From a virus (Duplodnaviria; Heunggongvirae; Uroviricota; Caudoviricetes), in the IMG/VR virus record IMGVR_UViG_2778261216_000004: a DNA stretch of 37,627 bases, one strand, 5' to 3'. Below, one piece after another: positions 1 through 37,627 of this stretch. Both the position numbers and the translations under genes were made by a program. Every line of letters starts with the position of its first letter. The first letter of the stretch is position 1. The notes under the pieces are model-generated. The model was not told the origin of the DNA and searched no databases. It saw only the letters and a list, made by a program, of their open reading frames with translations.

Positions 1-996
1 TTAACGAACCAGCCAGACCAGCATCAGGATAATCGCGACTAACAGTATCCACAGCGCGGGACGCGTTGCCATATTTTGCAACGTGTCCATCATCGGTGGA
101 AAAGGATTAAGCAGCGGTTGCATAACACGCGGATCAATCCCTTTAACCCGCCGTTGATAAAGCTGATTAAGAATATCCTCGGCCTGGGCAGAAGAAAGCG
201 ATGATTGCGCAGAAAGACCATATTTTTGCTGGATATATGCCGATAACGCCGCCAGTTCACTGGCATCTAAAGGTTGTTTTAGCGTCATCTGTAGTGATTC
301 CAGCGTCGGCGTATTTTGCTGGCTTAGCGTCTGACGCGCCTGTAGCCAGGTCACCAGATGGTTAAACAGTTTCGCTGGAATTAACTCGCCATCTTTCACC
401 CCGGAAAGTTCCAGCATCGATTGCCAGATCTGTTTGCTGGGTTCCCCCGTTGCCGCCGCAAGTTTGGTCACCAGCTGTTTTAGCGCATTGTGCTCCGCCG
501 GTAATAAAGGACGGTCGGTCGCCTCGCGCTGCTGTGGTTGCGGAATAACCATCTTCCCTTCCTGCAACAGGGTGAGAATGGTTTTTAATTGCTCCGGTGA
601 GAGCTGATTCAGCGGCGTCTGACCAAAGTTATGACGGATATAATCCGTGACCGCCTGACGATTATTCCCCAGACGTAAATACTCCCCTAATTGCGCTAAA
701 AGCTGGCGGGCAGAATGGCTTTTTTGCGCGGCCAGCAGACGTTGCGCCAGGTTATGCTCAGCGGCAGGGAAGTGACGCGAAAGCAGCGGTGAATCTCCCG
801 ACAGACCAATATCGTGCCTGATACCCGCCCACAGTTCTGCTCTTTGCTGTTGCGTCAGTGAGGTCACTTTCGTCATTAAGCTTTCCAGCGAAGTACGTTG
901 CTGACTGGATAAAGGCTGATTGCCCGCGCCAGACGGCAGGTTATCTCCCTGACCTGGTGGTTGCCCAGGAGGAGGGCCGGAAATAGGTTGTATCAT
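1..996 (-). CDS. flk: Flagellar regulator Flk (host gene)
   Basis: Full-length 331-aa ORF, Gln/Leu/Ser-rich with a C-terminal hydrophobic anchor (ALWILLVAIILMLVWLV), matching Flk as I recall it. It lies 99 bp from a divergent MKILVDE start typical of pdxB, the arrangement I recall for E. coli. Confidence 0.75.
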   Translation of the reverse strand: MIQPISGPPPGQPPGQGDNLPSGAGNQPLSSQQRTSLESLMTKVTSLTQQQRAELWAGIRHDIGLSGDSPLLSRHFPAAEHNLAQRLLAAQKSHSARQLLAQLGEYLRLGNNRQAVTDYIRHNFGQTPLNQLSPEQLKTILTLLQEGKMVIPQPQQREATDRPLLPAEHNALKQLVTKLAAATGEPSKQIWQSMLELSGVKDGELIPAKLFNHLVTWLQARQTLSQQNTPTLESLQMTLKQPLDASELAALSAYIQQKYGLSAQSSLSSAQAEDILNQLYQRRVKGIDPRVMQPLLNPFPPMMDTLQNMATRPALWILLVAIILMLVWLVR

Positions 997-1198: not shown

Positions 1199-1228
1199 TA
1201 AGCCCGCAACATTGCGGGCTTTGTCTTA
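1199..1228. terminator. GC hairpin with T-rich tail at the prophage edge
   Basis: AGCCCGCAAcatTGCGGGCT followed by TTGTCTT on the plus strand, immediately after the methyltransferase stop. It would stop read-through from the host pdxB promoter into the prophage and may also end the com/methyltransferase transcript. Confidence 0.45.
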
Positions 1229-2017
1229 TGGTTCGATCGCCGTTTTGAGCCGTTGTGTTGCTACATCAAAATAATGATCACTGGTTTCTATACCAATAAA
1301 TTTGCGTCCTGCTTTCAGTGCTGCAACACCCGTTGTTCCCGATCCCATAAAAGGATCAAGGACTGTTCCACCACTATTCGCAGTCCTGACCAGTTCTGCC
1401 ATAAGTTCTTCTGGTTTTCCGGTCGGGTGCATTTTCTTTGATGGGATAACCGGGAACGTCATGCAGCCGTCGAACGGTCCCGAAGGCGATTTACCTAAAT
1501 GGCCTTTACTGCCCCAGACGATGTATTCGCACTGATGCCGGAAATACCCCGTATGGGGTGTTCGTGACCCCCTTCCTTTGTTCCACGCAATGATTCCACG
1601 CCATGTAAAACCGCTGGCCTGAAACGCATCGGTTAAAGCTGGCAGTTGTCGCCAGTCAGTAAATACCAGGGCATAACCGCCCGGCCTGACTGCGCGGTGT
1701 GCCTGTGCCATCCATAATTGTGTCCAGTAAGCCCACGAACGGGCATCCATGTTTTCACCCGCAAACCCATCAAAGCGATGAAGGTTCTCGCCGTTCAGAT
1801 ATTTTGCGTGGCTGCCCTGGTTGGTGCGTCCGGCCTTGTGTGTCGCGCCCGAACTGTAAGGCGGGTCAGTGATTAAGGCATCAATACTTTCTGGCTCAAT
1901 CAGCGGCAATATTTCCAGCGCATTCCCACGACAGAGCGTGGCATTGTCAGTCTGATAAACCTTAGTGTGTTCCGGTGTATGTGCTGGTTGGTGCTGGATT
2001 GCGATCCCCACGGTCAT
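1226..2017 (-). CDS. DNA N6-adenine (or N4-cytosine) methyltransferase, beta-class
   Basis: 263 aa with DPPY (motif IV) near the N-terminus and a DPFMGSGTTG (motif I) near the C-terminus, the order typical of N4/N6 MTase family proteins. Its 5' end overlaps the com-like ORF. Confidence 0.85.
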   Translation of the reverse strand: MTVGIAIQHQPAHTPEHTKVYQTDNATLCRGNALEILPLIEPESIDALITDPPYSSGATHKAGRTNQGSHAKYLNGENLHRFDGFAGENMDARSWAYWTQLWMAQAHRAVRPGGYALVFTDWRQLPALTDAFQASGFTWRGIIAWNKGRGSRTPHTGYFRHQCEYIVWGSKGHLGKSPSGPFDGCMTFPVIPSKKMHPTGKPEELMAELVRTANSGGTVLDPFMGSGTTGVAALKAGRKFIGIETSDHYFDVATQRLKTAIEP

Positions 2018-2159
2018 AACTCCTCATGTGTGTGGGGTGCTCAATGGCTCTCGTTATCTGGTTAAGTGTTTTGCAGCGCGGACATTTTATTTCAATGTAG
2101 TGAAATGAGGCGCGGGCAAGTAGTTTGTTGCAATTTTTGCATCGTACATTTTGCGTCAT
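1962..2159 (-). CDS. com: Com-like zinc-finger translational regulator
   Basis: 65 aa from an ATG with a GAGGTG ribosome-binding site. MTQNVRCKNCNKLL...IEIKCPRCK matches the Mu Com CxxC...CxxC motif (Mu Com: MKSIRCKNCNKLLF...IEIRCPRCK). It overlaps the downstream methyltransferase start as com overlaps mom in Mu. Confidence 0.75.
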   Translation of the reverse strand: MTQNVRCKNCNKLLARASFHYIEIKCPRCKTLNQITRAIEHPTHMRSYDRGDRNPAPTSTYTGTH

Positions 2160-2203
2160 TTGCGGCACCTCTTGTGTGGTTACTGCTGCCGATATGATAA
2201 CAA

Positions 2204-2241
2204 ATCGATCGTTTTTATCGATCGGATTTATTGCATCGATC
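2204..2241. promoter_or_regulatory. Three ATCGATC (GATC-containing) repeats upstream of com
   Basis: ATCGATC at 2204-2210, 2217-2223 and 2235-2241, 45-80 bp upstream of the com start. This resembles the Dam-methylation-sensitive GATC cluster upstream of the Mu mom operon. Confidence 0.4.
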
Positions 2242-2271
2242 TGTTATGCCTATTGCTTATGGATGGGGATA

Positions 2272-2308
2272 CCAAAAAGAAAACCCGCAGTTTTTACGCT
2301 GCGGGCTT
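2272..2308 (-). terminator. Rho-independent terminator (hok-like transcript)
   Basis: On the minus strand, AGCCCGCAG-cgtaaaaa-CTGCGGGTT followed by TTCTTTTT, about 85 nt downstream of the hok-like stop. Confidence 0.5.
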
Positions 2309-2394: not shown

Positions 2395-2535
2395 TTACTG
2401 CTTACACTGTAAGAACGCCGCAAACTCCGCTCCCCAGAAGCTCATCCGTATTTCACACAGCGAACCGTGCAGCATCCAGATGATGAGGATTACCGTCACG
2501 CAGAATGTGATGGCCGTAAGCGATTTTTGCGACAT
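2395..2535 (-). CDS. hok: Hok/Gef-family type I toxin (small membrane peptide), not in the ORF track
   Basis: 46-aa ORF MSQKSLTAITFCVTVILIIWMLHGSLCEIRMSFWGAEFAAFLQCKQ with an AAAGGAG ribosome-binding site. It has a hydrophobic N-terminus, the conserved SLCEIR motif and an AAF motif as in Hok/HokA. The flanking UTRs are rich in hairpins. Confidence 0.7.
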   Translation of the reverse strand: MSQKSLTAITFCVTVILIIWMLHGSLCEIRMSFWGAEFAAFLQCKQ

Positions 2536-2726
2536 GGCGCTTGCTCCTTTGTTGGAGAGGCGCTAACCTATCACTTGCTTAAGGTAGATATGTTAGGGCC
2601 TCGGTTAAACAGAAATGTTTTCCGGGGCCTTTCCACATCTGGCCTTCGGGTATTCCCTCCGACCATCAGTCGAAAGGCACCCGCGCGTAATCTATCGCTT
2701 TTTTGTTGCTCCGGCAATTCTGCCCA

Positions 2727-2987
2727 TTAATTCTGAGGTAAAGGCAAACTCATCTGATTGTTTCCCCTGTGTGAAGCTGGCAGCTCATGCCACGGGATAC
2801 CTTCTGAAGAGAGAGCGCCGGAGGCGTGTTTTGATGTGAATTTATGGAAAGCTTCCAGTGTTGAGAAGCATACGCCGCATTCCAGATTGTTACACTGGTA
2901 ATACTTTTGCCGCACGGTGTTTGAATCATTTTCAGGACGACTGGTGCGGATACGGGCAGATGCGCCACAAAGCGGACAACGAAACAT
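2727..2987 (-). CDS. ogr: Ogr/Delta-type zinc-finger late transcription activator
   Basis: MFRCPLCGASARIRTSR...YYQCNNLECGVCF matches P2 Ogr (MFHCPLC...RTSR...YHQCQNVNC). Strong AGGGAGG ribosome-binding site. Confidence 0.85.
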   Translation of the reverse strand: MFRCPLCGASARIRTSRPENDSNTVRQKYYQCNNLECGVCFSTLEAFHKFTSKHASGALSSEGIPWHELPASHRGNNQMSLPLPQN

Positions 2988-3245
2988 AGCGACCTCCCTT
3001 AACGTGGTGCTGCCACCATTCTAAGTTGCCCCAACTCAGATTCCAACAGCAACTCCGCTTTGAGCAAGTCACTGAAGTAGGCTTTGTCGTGGCGAATAAA
3101 TTACATGAGTATCTCAATGATGTCATTTGAGTAGGATTTTAATGTATAACAATAAGGCTTGTGTTAATCTTAAAGTTGAATTGTGGTTTATGAAAAAAAC
3201 AAATGCTGATTCTCAACGAAAATTTCACTGAAATAAGGGTTGTAA

Positions 3246-4304
3246 ATGACAAAAACTATATCGATTTTTAATAACAAAGGTGGTGTTGGTAAAACAACTA
3301 TAATTTGGAATCTTGCAGTATCGCTAGCAGATAAAGGAAAAAGTGTTTTATTAATAGACTTTGATCCCCAGTGTAATCTCTCAATTGCATGTATTGGTGA
3401 TGAGGAATTTTCAGAGTTATTGGAACCTTCAGATGATTTCCCTTTTGGAAAAACGGTTAAAGCATTTGCATTGCCTTACATACAACAAAATACTATAGGT
3501 GAAGTTTATACAACAGAACCTAAGACTAAGACAGATGCAGGCGTTTTGCATATTGTTCCTGGAGACTTTTGGCTTAATACATTTTCAGATATTTTAAATG
3601 TCGGCACTGATGTTATAAGTGGCGCAGGGTTATATCGTTTTATTTTGCCAGATTTGATAACAAAAAAAGCATCAGAGAAAAATGATGTTATTTATGATTA
3701 TGTCCTAATAGATTTACCTCCCTCATTCAATACGCTTGTTAGATCGTCATTGTACTGCTCGGACTATTTTTTAGTTCCTTGCACACCTGATTTATTCTCT
3801 TCATATTGTGTAGGGCTGATTGGTGAGATGTTGCCATCATTTATACGTGATTGGGAGCAGGGCAAGGAAAGATATCTATCAGGTAACCCACGAGATAATA
3901 TTATATCTCAGAAAGGGATGCCTAAATTTGGCGGTTGGATATTCAATGGTTTTGATACGAGAAAGCAAAATGATGTTAAACAAGAGGTTGGTGCAGATGC
4001 AGTTCATCACCGTTCAATAAGAAAAGCGATAGAGGAAAAAATGCTTCCTCAGCTTTCACAGATTTCATCTTACAACGCGGTTCCTAATTTTACTGATTAT
4101 GAACCAGTTGGAAAGATTGAGGACCTCAACGTTATGGCTCCTGATAGTATTATTCAAAATATACCTATTCGCTATTTGTCTCGAGTTAGGCCAACGAATG
4201 CTCTTCGTGGGCGGGGGCAATGGGCAGTTAATCAGGTAGAACTAATGAATGAGATGGCTGGTGAGTATGATCATTTAGCTGAACACATAATAAATAATTT
4301 TTAA
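3246..4304 (+). CDS. Orphan ParA/MinD-family ATPase with an uncharacterised ~150-aa C-terminal extension
   Basis: Deviant Walker A NNKGGVGKTT, the DFDPQCN motif and a Walker B-like YDYVLIDLPP. The gene and its flanks are visibly AT-rich compared with the prophage. No parB-like partner is adjacent. Confidence 0.8.
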   Translation: MTKTISIFNNKGGVGKTTIIWNLAVSLADKGKSVLLIDFDPQCNLSIACIGDEEFSELLEPSDDFPFGKTVKAFALPYIQQNTIGEVYTTEPKTKTDAGVLHIVPGDFWLNTFSDILNVGTDVISGAGLYRFILPDLITKKASEKNDVIYDYVLIDLPPSFNTLVRSSLYCSDYFLVPCTPDLFSSYCVGLIGEMLPSFIRDWEQGKERYLSGNPRDNIISQKGMPKFGGWIFNGFDTRKQNDVKQEVGADAVHHRSIRKAIEEKMLPQLSQISSYNAVPNFTDYEPVGKIEDLNVMAPDSIIQNIPIRYLSRVRPTNALRGRGQWAVNQVELMNEMAGEYDHLAEHIINNF

Positions 4305-4452: not shown

Positions 4453-5553
4453 TCACTCTGTTTCCGCTATCCATTCCGGGATTTTTGCCTCAAGCTCAAG
4501 CTGCGTGGTAAAGCCGCTGTTATCAATGGTGTGCTCGGCTTTTGCAATGATCCAGTCCTGATTGTCGATGTCACTTTTGAAGCCTGTCACCGTGCCATGC
4601 ATTTCGGGGTAGAGTTCTGCGCGTCCACGTGCCAGCGTGATGGAGAATGATGCGGCTCTGCGTTGTAGCTGCTGCCACTTTGCCGCCGCTGCGCGTCTTG
4701 CTGCCTGTTCGTTCTGATAAGTTTTGCGTAACACAAACACGTTGCCTTCCGAACCTTCCATATAGTCACCTTCACGGCTGCTGCTTTTCTCTTTTTTCGG
4801 TTTGCGGCGTTTCACGCTGACTTTTTTCTTTTTCCCGTAATTAAGATCAAGCCAGTAAGCGCGTACCCCCGTATACGCTTCGCGGTCAGCAATGCGGAAC
4901 TGATGGCGATCGCCACTGCTGCGAGTGATGGCGAACGATGGCAACGGCTGGCCCTGTGCGTTCACGCCACCGCCTGGCATGATGAATAACAGATTACCGC
5001 TTTTTACTGTGGTGATTGCGCCCAGCATTTCCGCCATGCGCGTAAGGAAGGATATGTCGCTTTCTTCAGTCTGGTCAGCGTGGTCGATTTCAATATCCAT
5101 CAGCATTTCGCTGATTTGCGGTTTCAGACCATACCGATGAGCGATGGCGGATACCACACGCTCAACGGTCACATCATGCCAGGACACCTCACGTTTAACG
5201 TTAAATTCATCCCGAAAATCTGCGCTTCTGGCTGAAACAGTCAGCCTGTCCGGCGGTCCTTCGTGAGCGATTTCATCAACAATGTAAGTGCCTTTTTCTG
5301 TCAGCGGTTCTCCTTTCCAGCCCATGAGAACCGTCAGGCGCGCGCCCCGTGGCGGTAGCTGCAACTGACCATCCACATCATCCAGCGTGATGGTGAGCTG
5401 GTCCGCCTCAAATCCCCGGTTGTCGGTCAGTGACAGGCTCATCAGGCGCTCTGCCACGCCGGACAGCGTTTTCCCCTCCGCGAGAATATCAAAATCCGGC
5501 ATTTTTACGGGGTCTGTGCTCTGACTGAGCAATTGCATGGTGGTGTCGGTCAT
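4453..5553 (-). CDS. D: Tail protein D (late control gene D family)
   Basis: Matches P2 gpD motifs (LSLTDNRGFEADQL, REGDYMEGSEGNVF). Start set at the internal ATG with an AGGGAGGGA ribosome-binding site rather than the ORF-track start. Confidence 0.85.
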   Translation of the reverse strand: MTDTTMQLLSQSTDPVKMPDFDILAEGKTLSGVAERLMSLSLTDNRGFEADQLTITLDDVDGQLQLPPRGARLTVLMGWKGEPLTEKGTYIVDEIAHEGPPDRLTVSARSADFRDEFNVKREVSWHDVTVERVVSAIAHRYGLKPQISEMLMDIEIDHADQTEESDISFLTRMAEMLGAITTVKSGNLLFIMPGGGVNAQGQPLPSFAITRSSGDRHQFRIADREAYTGVRAYWLDLNYGKKKKVSVKRRKPKKEKSSSREGDYMEGSEGNVFVLRKTYQNEQAARRAAAAKWQQLQRRAASFSITLARGRAELYPEMHGTVTGFKSDIDNQDWIIAKAEHTIDNSGFTTQLELEAKIPEWIAETE

Positions 5554-5710
5554 CTGTTCCCTCCCTGTGCGGCATGGTCGCATGTGCGTGCGGAGTGGGT
5601 TACTGCTTTTTGTTGTCGCCGTGGCGGGAGAATAGCGCAGGGGTGAGATTACGCGCGTGGTGGGTGATGATTGTTGCTGAATCATTTAACGGATACAAGG
5701 GGCTGAAGCT

Positions 5711-28009: not shown

Positions 28010-28969
28010 TTACTCCTTGTCCATTGCGTACAGCCCATTAACTAGAGCAAACTGTGGCACCCCGTCCGCGATGAAAGTCGCATTAACTCCGCAGGCTTCG
28101 CGGATAGCGGGTGCCACAATCTCCGCCCCTCCACCGACAACCATCACCCGCCCGTAACCCGAAAAACCCGCCAGCGCGCGGATCACGCGTTGTTTCAGTG
28201 TTTCTTCCTTTTCACGAATTACCGCCATCAGGCTGGCGTAATGCGCGTCATTGTGGATGTGCTGGCGCAGCCAGGCTTCATCATGGCGATGTTCGATAAT
28301 GGTATTGGCGATGTGGTGACTGGTGCGCATACCGTTAGTGGCCATCACCGACAGTACGGCATCGGCCATCAGAGAAACGCCCACGTGTGGATCGCAAAAC
28401 ACCTGGCTGATACCTGCCAGTTGCCCCTGAACCTTTGCCACATCCAGCGTGGTTCCGCCCAAATCCACAATCAGCAGGGATTCAAACGGACTCATGTCAG
28501 CCAGTGCCTTAAAGCCAGCCGGAATGGATTCAGGCATAACCCGTACGTTACGGATAGTGAATGCTTCGCCGTTCTGGTACTCCACCGGGCGCATGACGTT
28601 CGCTTTTTTGCGGTTGATGTTGGCCATGTCCGGCTGTGCGTTTGTATCGAAATACTCGCTTAGTGGCAGGGTGACAACCACATCCACTTCCTGTGGTGTG
28701 ATGCCTGATTTGACCAGCGCGTGATGAATGGCAATTATATTCACATCGCTGTACTGGTATTGCGTGTCGGTCGTCTGGACAAAGCGATCGCTGACCGGAT
28801 CAAAACCATAGCGCACGCCATCAAGCATGTAGTTCGCGGGCTGCGTGCCACCGAACGGCGCAGACCATTCCGACTTGAAGCTGTTCGGGCTGATGGCGTT
28901 GCGGCGTTCGCCGTTCTCAGTCCATGCCAGCTTGATGTTGGTGGAGCCGTCGTCGATACAAATTTTCAT
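28010..28969 (-). CDS. parM: ParM/StbA-like actin-like ATPase
   Basis: MKICIDDGSTNIKLAW...ISPNSFK...YQYSDVNIIAIHHAL...LIVDLGGTTLD...VGGGAE closely follows R1 ParM motifs (MLVFIDDGSTNIKLQW..., IIDLGGTTLD, VIGGGAE). Confidence 0.8.
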   Translation of the reverse strand: MKICIDDGSTNIKLAWTENGERRNAISPNSFKSEWSAPFGGTQPANYMLDGVRYGFDPVSDRFVQTTDTQYQYSDVNIIAIHHALVKSGITPQEVDVVVTLPLSEYFDTNAQPDMANINRKKANVMRPVEYQNGEAFTIRNVRVMPESIPAGFKALADMSPFESLLIVDLGGTTLDVAKVQGQLAGISQVFCDPHVGVSLMADAVLSVMATNGMRTSHHIANTIIEHRHDEAWLRQHIHNDAHYASLMAVIREKEETLKQRVIRALAGFSGYGRVMVVGGGAEIVAPAIREACGVNATFIADGVPQFALVNGLYAMDKE

Positions 28970-29006: not shown

Positions 29007-29112
29007 GGATTTTTAAATCCCGCTTTTGCCTGTTTTGTGCGCGCTTCATATATCGCGGCACGTTTTTTGCTCATTTACGGGATTTGTGAATCCCGTTTCT
29101 GTCTGTTTTTTG
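29007..29112. repeat. Two ~33-bp direct repeats, each a hairpin with a T-rich tail, spanning the A stop and the parM-like upstream region
   Basis: GGATTTTTAAATCCCGCTTTTGCCTGTTTTGTG (29007-29039) and GGGATTTGTGAATCCCGTTTCTGTCTGTTTTTTG (29079-29112). Confidence 0.45.
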
Positions 29113-31869
29113 TTCCCAACGGGTCAGGCCACCCCGCAGCAGGTCTGCTTTGCGGTGGGCGCGTTCAGTGGTTTCACTGATTCTCTGTGCGTGCTCTGCG
29201 TCACGGATGGCGCGCAGCATGTCAGAAAGCACGGTAACGGGTGTCTTCATGGTGTTCTGGTCTTGCTGAAGTGTGGATGCCAGGCGTGCGGCGGCTTCGG
29301 GGTCTGATGCCCCCAGCTGTTCCAGATAGCTGGCGACCGGGTTATGGCGGATCTCCGTGCTGCTTACGCCGTGATTACGGCTCAGGCGCTGCCAGAGCTG
29401 CGTGATTCGGCTGTCCGGGCGGGGATCCGGTTTGCGTACAATTTCAAATCCCTGCGGTGCAATGATGCTGCCGTCAACGTACAGACTGCCGCCCCGTAAC
29501 AGGTGCTGCATCTGTTGTTCACCGATATGCAGGCCGAGAGATTCAGCAGACTCCCGCCATTCTTTAGCGAGTAATTCGTGGTTATCAGGCAAAGGCCGCT
29601 GCTGTTTGCGGCTCTGTGTCCAGCCCTGCATTTCATCACTGCTATTTTTTGCCTGTTTGTCACGAAGCGAACGCATCAGCGCCCGGCGTTCGTGCCGTTT
29701 CAGTGAGCGCATCCATTCGTTCACTTCAACGCCGTCAGGGAGCTGCGGCCACGGTGCTGGCCGTTCTTCCGGCTGTTCTGTCCCGTTGTTGTCCGTTTCC
29801 TGTACACGGGGACAGTTATTGCCACGAGTCCAAGGGGCGGCAGGGCCGCCCTGAAGGTCAAAACCATTTTCGTGGGCGCTGTCTTCCGGTTCTGGTTTAC
29901 GTCTTACCAGCTTCCAGTTATCCGGATGCGTGCACACACGGGAGGATTCCCCGATGAGTGGTGACCAGATCCCGTAAATCTGTACGCTCTGTTCGCCGTA
30001 ATCGTTCAGCTCATCTGCGAGGTCGTAGGCGGTGCGAATCAGGTAGTCTTTGCGTGGAACAAGCACGCCGCCCTGTTTCTCTATGTAGGTGGCAAAACAT
30101 CCGGCATCAGCGGCAGCAAGAACCGCATCCATTGCGTCATTTTCCAGACGTTGCGGTCCCTGTGGGTTACGTGCCATCTGACAGGCAAGGCGGCGCAGTT
30201 CACGCCACACCTGACGGGAAGGGATGCCAAAGAACTGGAACTGGCGGACCCGGTGAAGGCGCGCCCAGCCGATGGCGCGTTCCACGCTTTCTGCCATCGT
30301 CTTTCCTGATTCGTCGTCGATGCGCGGTTTGCCTGTTTTCGGGTCAATGCCATCCACGGCGCGGCTGTCCAGGTTCTTTCCGATGTAGGTGGCGATGTAG
30401 CTGGTTGGTGTGCCTTTTGAGCCGTCGACGTACTCTGCCTTAAAGCGCGGAGTTATGTCATTGCCCAGCTCGTGGCGGTCTTCGCGAATGGCAATATCAC
30501 GGGTGATGTCCACGATGCTGTCGATTTCTTCAGGATGTGCAAAGACCATCATGTGCCAGTGCACGGTGCCGTCATGGTGAGGCTCCACCGTGCGAATGCC
30601 ATACCAGCGCAGGCCGTCGCGGTTCAGTTTTTTGCGGACCGCCTTAAAAAACGTGTTAACCAGGTAATCGCTGGAATCGCGCATGGTGGCCCCGTTCCAT
30701 TTGGGGTTCGGATGACCGTTCTCCGTTGTTGCGTGGTACTTCGAAGGGGTAGTGACAGTCAGAAACACCGCTTTGTCGCCACGGGCTTCGGCCAGAAGTT
30801 CCAGCCCCTTCATGGTGGCCATCATTTCTGCCTTACGGTGAACCGGGTTACTTACTCCCGCGTAATACACCGTCTCGAGATCAATCGTGAACCCGTCTTC
30901 ATTTTCCAGCATGAAACTTTTCAGGAAATCGCGTGTTTTCTCGCGCTGTGCGCGAAACTCGCTTAACGCGTCCTGGCTCAGATAGGGTGATGTTTTTCTG
31001 GAAACCAGACAGGCGGCGCGGAGTTGTTCTTCCCGCCACTCGCAACGTAACAGCCACAGTTTGCGTTTCCACCATTCTGCACAGGTCAGGCGAAGGATTG
31101 CGCCCGGCAGCAGCTCCGTGTCCGGTTCGTTCCTCCGGTCTTTGTCTGTTGTCAGTGCGTCATAATGTGGAGGCATGGCGTGCAGGTGTAACGCCATGCG
31201 GGCCAGCATCTGATACGCCTTCAGCGTTACATCCATGGTCAGTTCGCCATCGGTCGCGCCAAAGCCATCGCAGAGTTTTTCGAAGGTGCTGCTGAACATC
31301 GCCGCCGTCATGGTGGCCAGTGTCTGTATCTGGTGTTTGTTGAGCTGCGGCAGGTAAAGCAAATCGTCCAGGCGTTCGCGTCCGGCAAGGGAGCGATAAC
31401 CCTGTGTCAGCCAGCGGTGATCGGTGCGCTCCAGACGTTCGAATATTTTGCGCAGGTTTCCGCGCGCGTAGCGTTCAGCCTGCCAGCTCTTTTTGCCTTT
31501 CTGACGATCGGCTTCCTGTTTTTTGCGCAGGAAGGAGAGGTGGCGAATAAGCGGATCGCGCAGATAGGACGGCAGCAGGCGCAGCGAGGCCATGGCTTCA
31601 TCCACCGCGCCGCGTGCCTGTTTTCTGGCATCTCCTGCCAGTGTGATGGTTTTGTCCTGTTTTTCCTGTGCGTCCAAGCTTTTATTAATCAGGTTGCCCA
31701 GCGGCGTTGCGGAGAACGCCGCATCAGCCATTTCCTGGCGGCGCTCGTTCTCTACCCGGTAGGCATCCAGCCAGGAGGAAAGCGCGGATTCAGGAGCGGG
31801 GATCCCCGTTCCTTCACGCCCCACTGCGTGGCGCGGTTGTTGCCAGTCCCTGATGTACTCTGCCGTCAT
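29071..31869 (-). CDS. A: Replication initiation protein A (rolling-circle nickase family)
   Basis: 932 aa, large early protein in the P2 gene A position. Confidence 0.8.
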   Translation of the reverse strand: MTAEYIRDWQQPRHAVGREGTGIPAPESALSSWLDAYRVENERRQEMADAAFSATPLGNLINKSLDAQEKQDKTITLAGDARKQARGAVDEAMASLRLLPSYLRDPLIRHLSFLRKKQEADRQKGKKSWQAERYARGNLRKIFERLERTDHRWLTQGYRSLAGRERLDDLLYLPQLNKHQIQTLATMTAAMFSSTFEKLCDGFGATDGELTMDVTLKAYQMLARMALHLHAMPPHYDALTTDKDRRNEPDTELLPGAILRLTCAEWWKRKLWLLRCEWREEQLRAACLVSRKTSPYLSQDALSEFRAQREKTRDFLKSFMLENEDGFTIDLETVYYAGVSNPVHRKAEMMATMKGLELLAEARGDKAVFLTVTTPSKYHATTENGHPNPKWNGATMRDSSDYLVNTFFKAVRKKLNRDGLRWYGIRTVEPHHDGTVHWHMMVFAHPEEIDSIVDITRDIAIREDRHELGNDITPRFKAEYVDGSKGTPTSYIATYIGKNLDSRAVDGIDPKTGKPRIDDESGKTMAESVERAIGWARLHRVRQFQFFGIPSRQVWRELRRLACQMARNPQGPQRLENDAMDAVLAAADAGCFATYIEKQGGVLVPRKDYLIRTAYDLADELNDYGEQSVQIYGIWSPLIGESSRVCTHPDNWKLVRRKPEPEDSAHENGFDLQGGPAAPWTRGNNCPRVQETDNNGTEQPEERPAPWPQLPDGVEVNEWMRSLKRHERRALMRSLRDKQAKNSSDEMQGWTQSRKQQRPLPDNHELLAKEWRESAESLGLHIGEQQMQHLLRGGSLYVDGSIIAPQGFEIVRKPDPRPDSRITQLWQRLSRNHGVSSTEIRHNPVASYLEQLGASDPEAAARLASTLQQDQNTMKTPVTVLSDMLRAIRDAEHAQRISETTERAHRKADLLRGGLTRWEQKTDRNGIHKSRK

Positions 31870-36607: not shown

Positions 36608-37627
36608 TTGGAGGGCTTCGCAATGTCAATTAAGAAGCTCGAAGATGGTCGTTATTTGCTGGACATCAGGCCGAACGGACGCAAGGGAAAGCGCGTGCGT
36701 AAGGTATTTGACAAAAAATCGGTAGCGGTGGCCACTGAACGCTACATCATGGCGAACGCTGAAAAGCGGGAATATATACAGGGCTACCGTGATCGCCGAA
36801 CGCTAAATGATTTGCTTGAGTTGTGGTGGATGTATCACGGTCAACACAGGCGTAAGGCGGAAGAAGACCGAAAACAACTGCGCAACATAATCAATGAGCT
36901 TGGCGCTGATATGCAGGCTGTGGATCTTGATAAGCTGAAAATTATCGCGTGGCGTTCTCAAAAGATAGCTGATGGATTGAAACCGTCATCTGCTAACAGG
37001 TACATGAATCGGTTATCCGGAATGTTTACCGTGCTGAAAAAAATAGGTCTTTGGGATGCAGAACATCCGGTAAGGGGAATTTCTATTCTTTATGTATCTC
37101 CACGAGAAATGGCGTTCCTGTCACAGAAGGAAGTTGCGTTATTGCTCGATACATTGGAGGGCGATTACTGGCGTGTTGCTCTTTTGTGTTTAAGCACAGG
37201 AGCGCGCTGGAGTGAAGCCTGTAAGCTCCGTGGTGAACAGATAGTTCATAACCGAGTGACGTTTCTTGAAACCAAAAATGGCCGAAAGAGAACAGTGCCA
37301 ATTTCGCAGGCAGTTTGTGAGGCGATCAAAACCAGAGAAACAGGCGGCTTGTTTGAGGTGAAGTACCGGGAATTCTGCTTGGCGCTGAAAAGAGTTAAGC
37401 CCGATTTACCAAAAGGCCAGGCTGCACATGTGCTGCGGCATACGTTCGCCAGCCATTTTGTGATGAACGGAGGAAACATTATTGCGCTTCAGAAGATTCT
37501 TGGCCACGCAACCATTCAGCAAACAATGGCATATGCACATTTTGCACCGGATTACCTGCAGGATGCGGTGGCCCTTAATCCGTTGAAAGGTGGCGTGAGT
37601 GTCCACGCAGTGTCCACGGGGGATTAA
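36608..37627 (+). CDS. int: Tyrosine integrase, P2 family
   Basis: Matches P2 Int (SIKKLEDGRY, IKPSSINR, LCLSTGARW, HVLRHTFASH, YAHFAPDYLQDA). The stop codon is at the window edge. Confidence 0.9.
   Translation: MEGFAMSIKKLEDGRYLLDIRPNGRKGKRVRKVFDKKSVAVATERYIMANAEKREYIQGYRDRRTLNDLLELWWMYHGQHRRKAEEDRKQLRNIINELGADMQAVDLDKLKIIAWRSQKIADGLKPSSANRYMNRLSGMFTVLKKIGLWDAEHPVRGISILYVSPREMAFLSQKEVALLLDTLEGDYWRVALLCLSTGARWSEACKLRGEQIVHNRVTFLETKNGRKRTVPISQAVCEAIKTRETGGLFEVKYREFCLALKRVKPDLPKGQAAHVLRHTFASHFVMNGGNIIALQKILGHATIQQTMAYAHFAPDYLQDAVALNPLKGGVSVHAVSTGD

Follow-up and report, generated by a model that had tools for sequence, protein, structure and literature searches.

A cassette of two overlapping genes, com and an orphan β-class DNA methyltransferase, lies at one end of a P2-like prophage in Escherichia coli. 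It was analyzed in the IMG/VR virus record IMGVR_UViG_2778261216_000004, a stretch of 37,627 nucleotides whose full length is referred to here as the window. The cassette is read as a portable module of the phage Mu com-mom type that places two locks on the methyltransferase, a reading to which a probability of roughly 0.75 is assigned. It rests on the protein families of the two gene products, on the conservation of both cis-elements, and on the linkage to com in many phages; OxyR binding, the identity of the promoter, the action of Com, the timing of expression, and the target and role of the enzyme are what we infer from these.

The first lock would be an OxyR operator with three Dam sites that overlaps a sigma-70 extended -10 promoter (2221-2194). 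When these sites are unmethylated, or possibly hemimethylated, OxyR would bind and occlude the -35 element and the spacer; full Dam methylation would exclude OxyR and allow transcription. The second lock would act on the bicistronic mRNA, from which com would be freely translated while the Shine-Dalgarno (SD) sequence and both candidate starts of the methyltransferase would be buried in a CCCCAC/GUGGGG hairpin. Com would bind the adjacent CC-N3-GAG hairpin and open the inhibition stem, and initiation would follow. The substrates of the enzyme would be adenines of both phage and host DNA, and shielding progeny genomes from restriction is its most plausible use. With this presumed anti-restriction role, the enzyme may influence the range of hosts that phages reach across restriction barriers.

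Operons that pair com with a methyltransferase have been described before, and both genes of the present pair are annotated. What is added here is a β-class enzyme in an E. coli P2-like phage with a complete Mu-type control region, together with a predicted layout in which the operator lies over the promoter and no activator site is present. The whole Mu mom control region (Dam/OxyR operator, Com, Com hairpin, and start-occluding hairpin) appears to travel as a unit, and is here joined to an enzyme other than Mom in a phage of another family.

The com and methyltransferase genes and their RNA elements

By its profile match and cysteine pattern, Com is a member of the PF10122 family of translational activators. 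The protein (given by its ends, MTQNVRCKNCNKLL...IEIKCPRCK) carries the zinc-finger pattern CKNC...CPRC and matches the Pfam model PF10122, Zn_ribbon_Com, with E = 9.5e-12 and 44.6 bits (cutoff 22.9), as well as PHROG 13819, 'gpCom control of modification' (E = 2e-17); NCBIfam has no model for Com. BLASTP aligns 42 amino acids of its zinc finger to Mu Com at 60% identity (E = 1e-15), and cysteines C7, C10, C27, and C30 correspond to C6, C9, C26, and C29 of the Mu protein, a CxxC-N16-CxxC arrangement near the N-terminus. RefSeq labels the gene products 'Com family DNA-binding transcriptional regulator' and 'DNA-methyltransferase'. The first of these names (e.g., WP_042094562) conflicts with the characterized role of Com as an RNA-binding translational activator, to which the label can be corrected.

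The methyltransferase matches PF01555 (N6_N4_Mtase, E = 3.5e-33). Its DPPY motif (residues 51-54) precedes FMGSGTTG (FxGxG), which lies near residue 223 and near the C-terminus, and this is the motif order of the β class. The closest solved relative is a small Helicobacter pylori DpnA-type enzyme (5HEK, E = 1e-20), with which residues 45-261 align. DPPY rather than SPPY suggests N6-adenine as the target, as a rule of thumb only. The PF01555 clade of the enzyme is very large in phages and prophages, with 5922 proteins at E ≤ 1e-20. No named or characterized close homologue was found, the protein falls below every curated cutoff in NCBIfam, and the literature on the specificity of the methyltransferase, on a P2-like com cassette, and on phase-variable prophage methyltransferases yielded nothing specific.

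M.EcoGII and M.EcoGI, which are non-specific, likewise belong to the β class, are orphan enzymes encoded by prophages, and are silent or under tight control (PMC5778455). However, the cassette enzyme and the M.EcoGII-like gene product of phage 1720a-02 share 22-28% identity, restricted to the catalytic and S-adenosylmethionine (SAM) motifs. Residues ~151-170 of the query are without a counterpart in residues ~111-255 of the 1720a-02 protein, and the cassette enzyme is ~90 amino acids shorter. Genes of the M.EcoGII type are located in lambdoid prophages near Q/stx and are not accompanied by com. No close relation to a characterized non-specific enzyme (M.EcoGII; Hia5/Hin1523) was found. Because the enzyme has no characterized close relative and is distant from M.EcoGII, relaxed target specificity, suggested by likeness to Mom and Hia5 (PMC3299994), is offered as a hypothesis only.

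Two RNA elements lie at the junction of the genes. The Com RNA motif GAG-N2-CC-N3-GAG-N2-CC, defined by systematic evolution of ligands by exponential enrichment (SELEX) and by selective 2'-hydroxyl acylation analyzed by primer extension (SHAPE) (PMC6483171), has its sole match in the window at 2052-2036 on the minus strand, compared with 0.04 expected, and lies 25 nt before the methyltransferase start. The match abuts the CCCCAC arm of the inhibition hairpin, and the Com hairpin shares one base with the inhibition stem. Within the inhibition hairpin, the SD sequence GGAG (2023-2020) is confined to a 4-nt apical loop, and AUG 2017-2015 and GUG 2011-2009 are both paired. This structure appears in the RNAfold minimum-energy and centroid folds at -18 kcal/mol (z = -1.85). 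Mu has a counterpart at the equivalent place, GCCUGCGAGCAU-CCCAC...GUGGG, and RNAalifold recovers a conserved 6-bp stem in 15 enterobacterial sequences ahead of Mom, C5, and β-class genes, with one compensatory pair (C-G here, U-A in Mu). By sequence and predicted fold, the start-occluding hairpin is homologous to the translation-inhibition structure of Mu. A hairpin with a CC-N2-3-GAG loop closed by C-G is thereby found directly 5' of a start-hiding hairpin, despite an A.A mismatch in its stem. The Com target RNA is not represented by any family in Rfam.

The first-pass annotation of this DNA had proposed, from its letters, a Com-type zinc-finger open reading frame (ORF) overlapping the 5' end of a β-class DPPY methyltransferase, and had named RNA folding of the overlap as a check. 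Both genes are present on the minus strand, the class of the enzyme is confirmed by the PF01555 match and by DPPY preceding FxGxG, and folding of the overlap returned a start-occluding hairpin in both predicted structures. The further proposal of Com-gated translation gains support from the homology of Com, the unique Com RNA motif, and the adjoining hairpin. The overlap itself, put at about 56 nt, holds when counted from ATG 2017 and shortens to 50 nt from the likelier start. This start is probably GUG 2011 rather than AUG 2017, since GUG 2011 lies 8 nt from GGAG whereas AUG 2017 lies only 2 nt away, since that GUG is where Mom and C5 genes begin in sister cassettes, and since a variant (L041) lacks the AUG. 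The start annotation of the methyltransferase can be moved accordingly. The coordinates of all features are collected in Table 1.

Table 1. Features of the com-methyltransferase cassette and of the surrounding prophage, by position in the window.
Feature	Position	Strand	Description
com	1962-2159	-	ATG 2159, stop 1964-1962; 65-amino-acid CCCC zinc ribbon, Mu Com homologue
com SD sequence	2168-2173	-	AAGAGG, read from sequence
Methyltransferase	1226-2017	-	orphan β-class N6-adenine DNA methyltransferase; 263 amino acids from AUG 2017, 261 from GUG 2011
Com-binding RNA motif	2036-2052	-	GAGAGCCAUUGAGCACC; predicted hairpin GAGC (2050-2047), loop CAUUGA (2046-2041), GCAC (2040-2037)
Translation-inhibition hairpin	2006-2037	-	outer stem CCCCAC (2037-2032)/GUGGGG (2011-2006), inner stem CAUGA/UUAUG
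Predicted Dam-sensitive OxyR operator	2204-2253		three GATC (2207-2210, 2220-2223, 2238-2241), each inside an ATCGATC repeat
Predicted sigma-70 promoter	2194-2221	-	-35 TCGATA (2221-2216), 16-bp spacer, TG 2202-2201, -10 TATCAT (2199-2194)
Intrinsic terminator closing the upstream ogr/hok unit	2281-2308	-	10-bp stem with 6 GC pairs, then TCTTTTTGGT
GC-rich 9-bp hairpin	1200-1221		5 nt past the methyltransferase stop, at the prophage/att end beside host flk
ogr	2727-2987	-	P2-like prophage
gpD tail protein	4453-5685	-	P2-like prophage
gpA replication protein	29071-31869	-	P2-like prophage
Integrase	36608-37627	+	P2-like prophage

The operator and promoter upstream of com

The heptamer ATCGATC occurs three times in the whole window, at 2204, 2217, and 2235. 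All copies fall within 38 bp and sit 45-82 bp upstream of the com ATG. For three randomly placed ATCGATC sites to lie within 31 bp has P = 3.5e-6, and GATCG-N7-CGATC is present once against 0.05 expected. A bare GATC triple that close is unremarkable given 103 sites (P = 0.27); GATC is under-represented in the window (103 observed, 139 expected). In the direction of com, the GATC sites are spaced by 18 and then 13 bp, which is exactly the spacing upstream of Mu com. The region aligns near-identically with Mu across the triad, and its bases line up one for one with those of the OxyR operators in Mu Pmom and E. coli agn43. A 37-bp OxyR consensus was also scored across both strands on a scale of 20. 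All four positions scoring at least 15 fall at 2208-2253 (two overlapping registers on both strands), compared with 0.07 in shuffles; on the same scale the validated Mu site scores 13, agn43 scores 14, and the cassette scores 15. As in the Mu mom operon, three Dam sites are thus embedded in an OxyR-type operator upstream of com. Among the Com loci fetched for comparison, com comes with a GATC cluster in three enterobacterial types of cassette, namely the Mu type, the SP18 type, and the present one; such clusters are absent from the loci of Acinetobacter, Neisseria, Haemophilus, Methylophaga, and similar lineages.

Two other Dam-controlled systems share this geometry. In agn43 (flu) of E. coli K-12, three GATC lie in one OxyR site with a spacing of 19/13, and ATCGATCG-TTTnTAT-CGATCG is shared almost exactly with the cassette. 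In the gtr genes of P22 and Salmonella, a 13-bp GATC pair forms an OxyR half-site; the P22 pair has the geometry of a validated half-site, and its methylation abolishes OxyR binding (PMC2909390). The two systems differ from the cassette in controlling surface proteins or the O-antigen, and phase variation has been demonstrated in them, whereas the position of the cassette operator relative to the transcription start is a prediction. The match to the agn43 type of GATC-containing OxyR site is strong, and its overlap with a promoter depends on the predicted promoter only. The cluster appears to be a homologue of known OxyR/Dam operators, to which OxyR would be expected to bind, and methylation-sensitive transcription of the cassette is well supported by these alignments.

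The RefSeq name of the com product raises the alternative that Com is a DNA-binding transcriptional regulator, with the GATC repeats being either its operator or a cluster that has no connection with OxyR and arose by chance or is of the SeqA type. The ordinary statistics of the bare GATC triple fit this view. It is nonetheless extremely unlikely, as the characterized Com protein is an RNA binder (PMC6483171), the repeats match in alignment two OxyR operators established by experiment, the top OxyR-consensus scores in the window fall on them, and they are absent from Com loci outside the enterobacterial lineages.

An intrinsic terminator closes the ogr/hok unit directly upstream, making the com cassette an independent transcription unit. 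Between 1150 and 2450, the sole promoter-like match on either strand is TCGATA-16-TATCAT, with the middle GATC overlapping the predicted -35 element and the proximal GATC lying within the spacer. This promoter is a consensus prediction, and would place the transcription start near 2187. Its TGnTATCAT element is kept in all variants of the cassette, including those with operator deletions. Terminator-like matches on both strands at 2205-2225 correspond to the palindromic GATC pair and were dismissed. In the variants L038, L039 (about 1420-1500), and L088, a deletion between GATCGAT repeats leaves zero or one GATC. These loci retain TGnTATCAT, and TAGGCA, moved by the deletion, takes the -35 position at a spacer of 16 bp; they are possible 'unlocked' alleles. 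L088 (NZ_JBQPOM010000071), a 226-kb contig in the Firmicute assembly 'Vagococcus sp. WN89Y', encodes a Com that is 92% identical to the E. coli protein and is probably enterobacterial contamination of the assembly.

The distance from the third GATC to the com ATG is 48 nt compared with 75 nt in Mu, an interval shorter by 27 bp. No Mu C box (TTAT-N6-ATAA, about -35 to -55) was found upstream of com, where the aligned C-box and weak-promoter segment of Mu is missing. Likewise, the P2 Ogr box (TGT-N12-ACA, about -55 from the start) has no match in 2190-2330, its nearest match lying inside com, and Ogr-dependent late expression was therefore rejected. A phage-encoded Dam that might open the operator was also considered, and none was found in the early region of the phage. 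The earlier suggestions of three ATCGATC repeats upstream of com and of Dam-sensitive transcription both stand, the latter on the 18/13 spacing of Mu, the alignments with Mu Pmom and agn43, and the OxyR-consensus scores. In contrast, the suggestion that the methyltransferase is expressed late in infection is unsupported, given that neither activator site is present and that only a stand-alone sigma-70-like extended -10 promoter overlaps the operator. The cassette may possibly be expressed in lysogens, perhaps switchably.

This layout brings forward another explanation, in which the cassette is a unit of lysogenic conversion, switched ON and OFF epigenetically in subpopulations of lysogens in the manner of agn43 and gtr, rather than a late lytic function. 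A stand-alone promoter overlapped by three GATC in an OxyR site, a region near-identical to the agn43 operator, the missing C or Ogr activator site, and a terminator-bounded unit at the attachment-site (att) end beside other cargo (hok/sok) are all compatible with such a switch, and whether mom itself phase-varies is described as an open question (PMC2909390). However, the agn43 operator lies downstream of the start site, while that of the cassette is predicted at about -54 to -20; the published E. coli methylomes that were examined reported no extra motif that could be linked to the gene; and lysogens keep prophage methyltransferases such as M.EcoGI and M.EcoGII silent (PMC5778455). On balance this explanation is clearly less probable. 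A narrower proposal, that an operator over a constitutive-type promoter without a phage activator could render the methyltransferase epigenetically bistable in lysogens, is unlikely. Under bistability, host Dam methylation would switch a second methylome ON and OFF in subpopulations, and the gate formed by Com and its hairpin would damp leaky expression. If so, only part of the phage progeny of a lysogen population, or else the host DNA, would be pre-armed against restriction.

Com loci in other phages and the weighing of the two-lock reading

A set of 160 Com loci was fetched from viral and genome collections, in which com is followed by modification enzymes of five unrelated groups. These are D12 α-class methyltransferases (47 loci), β-class PF01555 methyltransferases (44 loci, including the present one, Smp131, Salmonella, and Pseudoalteromonas), Mom (38 loci), C5-cytosine methyltransferases (13 loci), and Hin1523-type enzymes (7 loci), the last forming a separate cluster with no PF01555 match. 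The survey supports, as a rule of thumb, taking com as a sign of tightly gated DNA-modifying cargo. Two loci or groups of loci stand out. In L006 (LC727881, positions 2456-3707), a Mu-like phage within an Stx2c phage, a com that is 65% identical is followed by a C5-cytosine methyltransferase (PF00145) that starts at GUG inside the same CCCCAC/GUGGGG hairpin, a junction at which sister loci carry Mom. In Methylophaga thiooxydans DMS010, at least 12 near-identical loci of com and a D12 methyltransferase (L096, L103, and L108-L117) lie on different scaffolds, many at their ends, representing either a multicopy transposable Mu-like element or redundancy of the assembly.

The pattern G-A-[4-nt stem]-C-N2-3-GA-[stem]-C is present in nearly all of these loci. 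MAFFT alignment of the 19-20-nt hairpins placed the loop-length gap at the 5' end, for which reason stem pairs were counted by a script anchored on the motif. Across the three variable pairs of 55 distinct hairpins, 146 of 165 variable cells are paired, compared with 98.5 ± 4.1 after shuffling of the arms (0 of 2000 shuffles reach 146). Many pair types occur, including AUGC/GCAU, GUGC/GCAC, ACGC/GCGU, AGGC/GCCU, and GCAC/GUGC, and by this count the stem covaries strongly. Folds made for each lineage show its own hairpin over the SD sequence or the start after the motif. The 3' half of the Com hairpin is often one arm of the start hairpin, which would make the two folds mutually exclusive. Past the zinc finger, the tails of the Com proteins share only E-H-P-T, the translation of GAGCAYCCCAC, which points to constraint at the level of the RNA. 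With its five enzyme classes, its covarying hairpin, and no existing Rfam family, the set is a basis for an RNA family model.

An alternative to gating by Com is translational coupling in cis, in which ribosomes translating the tail of com melt the hairpin and Com is dispensable or otherwise employed. The com ORF does extend 50 nt past GUG 2011, straight through the hairpin, and the stem of the Com hairpin is imperfect here. Yet Mu has the same overlap, and Com is reported, in work cited in PMC3299994 and PMC6483171, to be required for translation of mom. The Com motif is conserved and covarying, and in Haemophilus-type loci com ends before the hairpin, without any overlap of the genes, yet motif and hairpin persist. 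Coupling in cis without Com is therefore quite unlikely.

Several observations weigh against the two-lock reading. The Com hairpin has one internal A.A mismatch in its stem (GAGC/GCAC), which is common to all E. coli cassettes of the present type and of the SP18 type, and the folding z-score of the inhibition hairpin is modest. Since the com frame runs through this hairpin, ribosomes moving along com could unfold it with no need for the Com protein. Excess structure in the 60 nt past the Com motif, compared with internal control windows in 40 non-redundant lineages, was not significant (mean z -0.49 vs -0.32, p = 0.24); such a fixed window misses the signal because many lineages use the Com hairpin itself in the start-sequestering stem, and reliance is consequently placed on the folds of each lineage and on the enterobacterial alignment. 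Upstream, promoter-like matches are no more frequent than in shuffles (1 vs 1.7), and cassettes that lost the GATC operator survive as natural variants. Other phages carry homologues of the methyltransferase with 54-62% identity but no com, so gating is no inherent property of the enzyme clade, and the idea that this clade is always linked to Com was rejected. No published transcription-start, methylome, or expression data were found for the cassette.

The first-pass annotation had called the arrangement Mu com/mom-like. This is borne out at the nucleotide level, although the phage itself is not Mu-like. In common with Mu, the cassette has a homologous Com, the GATC triad with its alignable flanks, a CC-N3-GAG Com hairpin adjoining a hairpin of the CCCAC/GUGGG type whose 3' arm contains a GUG start, and a com gene that overlaps its downstream neighbor. 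However, its host phage is P2-like, a β-class SAM-dependent methyltransferase replaces Mom (PF25680), which only sister cassettes encode, and the C-box/weak-promoter segment is absent, with a predicted sigma-70 extended -10 element overlapping the operator. The loop of the inhibition hairpin is 20 nt with an inner stem, compared with 11 nt in Mu.

Other systems combine Com with different cargo. In FluMu (Hin1523), Pnm1 (Nma1821), Haemophilus influenzae biotype aegyptius (Hia5), and Pseudomonas phage B3 (ORF47/48), com is followed by a DNA adenine methyltransferase in the position of mom, and in Mu-like prophages Com-binding elements were noted at the 5' end of the methyltransferase and a role in anti-restriction was proposed (PMC3299994). 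These enzymes are Dam-related, with FxGxG before DPPY, and nearly non-specific, in contrast to the PF01555 β-class enzyme of the cassette, and their loci lie in transposable Mu-like phages without a GATC/OxyR operator. A closer parallel is the P2-like Stenotrophomonas phage Smp131, in which a com annotated as 'translational regulator' overlaps a β-class methyltransferase that is 48% identical, with a perfectly paired Com hairpin and a start-sequestering fold. There, however, the pair follows the portal gene instead of lying at the att end, and a GATC triad of the cassette type is missing. In tailocin and prophage clusters of Pseudomonas, a short PF10122 gene precedes cargo such as llpA bacteriocins or levansucrase in a P2-related element (PMC6240691), which suggests that Com is a portable gating module. 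This cargo differs in not consisting of DNA-modification enzymes, and the likeness considered is one of gene order.

Prophage setting and neighboring genes

The window is a segment of an E. coli chromosome in which the prophage follows host flk (1-996, minus strand). The prophage is P2-like (Xuanwuvirus/P88-like), not Mu-like, and carries the com-methyltransferase cassette at its att-proximal end. A region of ~1.4 kb around the cassette is 99.9% identical to RefSeq E. coli chromosomes, in which a Hok/Gef gene and ogr are neighbors of the pair. The isolated phage Chuche has a cassette that is 98.9% identical, located between hok/ogr and attP/integrase, and labeled 'gpCom control of modification' and 'DNA methyltransferase'. 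The segment is present over 80% or more of its length in 157 of 5426 complete E. coli genomes (~3%), including O145 and other Shiga toxin-producing strains; in genomes that carry the cassette, the methyltransferase may add unexplained or condition-dependent N6-methyladenine signals.

The GC-rich hairpin just past the methyltransferase has a T-run on the plus strand only, which makes its role as a terminator of the cassette uncertain. It could stop transcription from the flk side, or belong to the att region.

Further cargo is scattered among the phage genes. Between ogr and com lie a Hok/Gef-type toxin ORF of 46 amino acids and a sok-like antisense RNA region (2395-2535 and 2547-2682, both on the minus strand), the latter scoring 49.7 bits against Rfam RF01794, below the gathering score of 59. 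Together they appear to make up a second cargo gene near att. The slot between the tail gene D and ogr is filled by a ParA-like AAA_31 ATPase on the opposite strand (3246-4304, plus strand), with a weak PADLOC match to PDC-M28B that covers the P-loop only. In the O145 strain RM8988 a PIN-domain protein is encoded there instead, and these differing contents suggest a hotspot for variable cargo or defense genes. Finally, a full-length ParM/StbA actin-like plasmid-segregation protein (28010-28969, minus strand) adjoins gpA, an unusual cargo for an integrated P2-like prophage.

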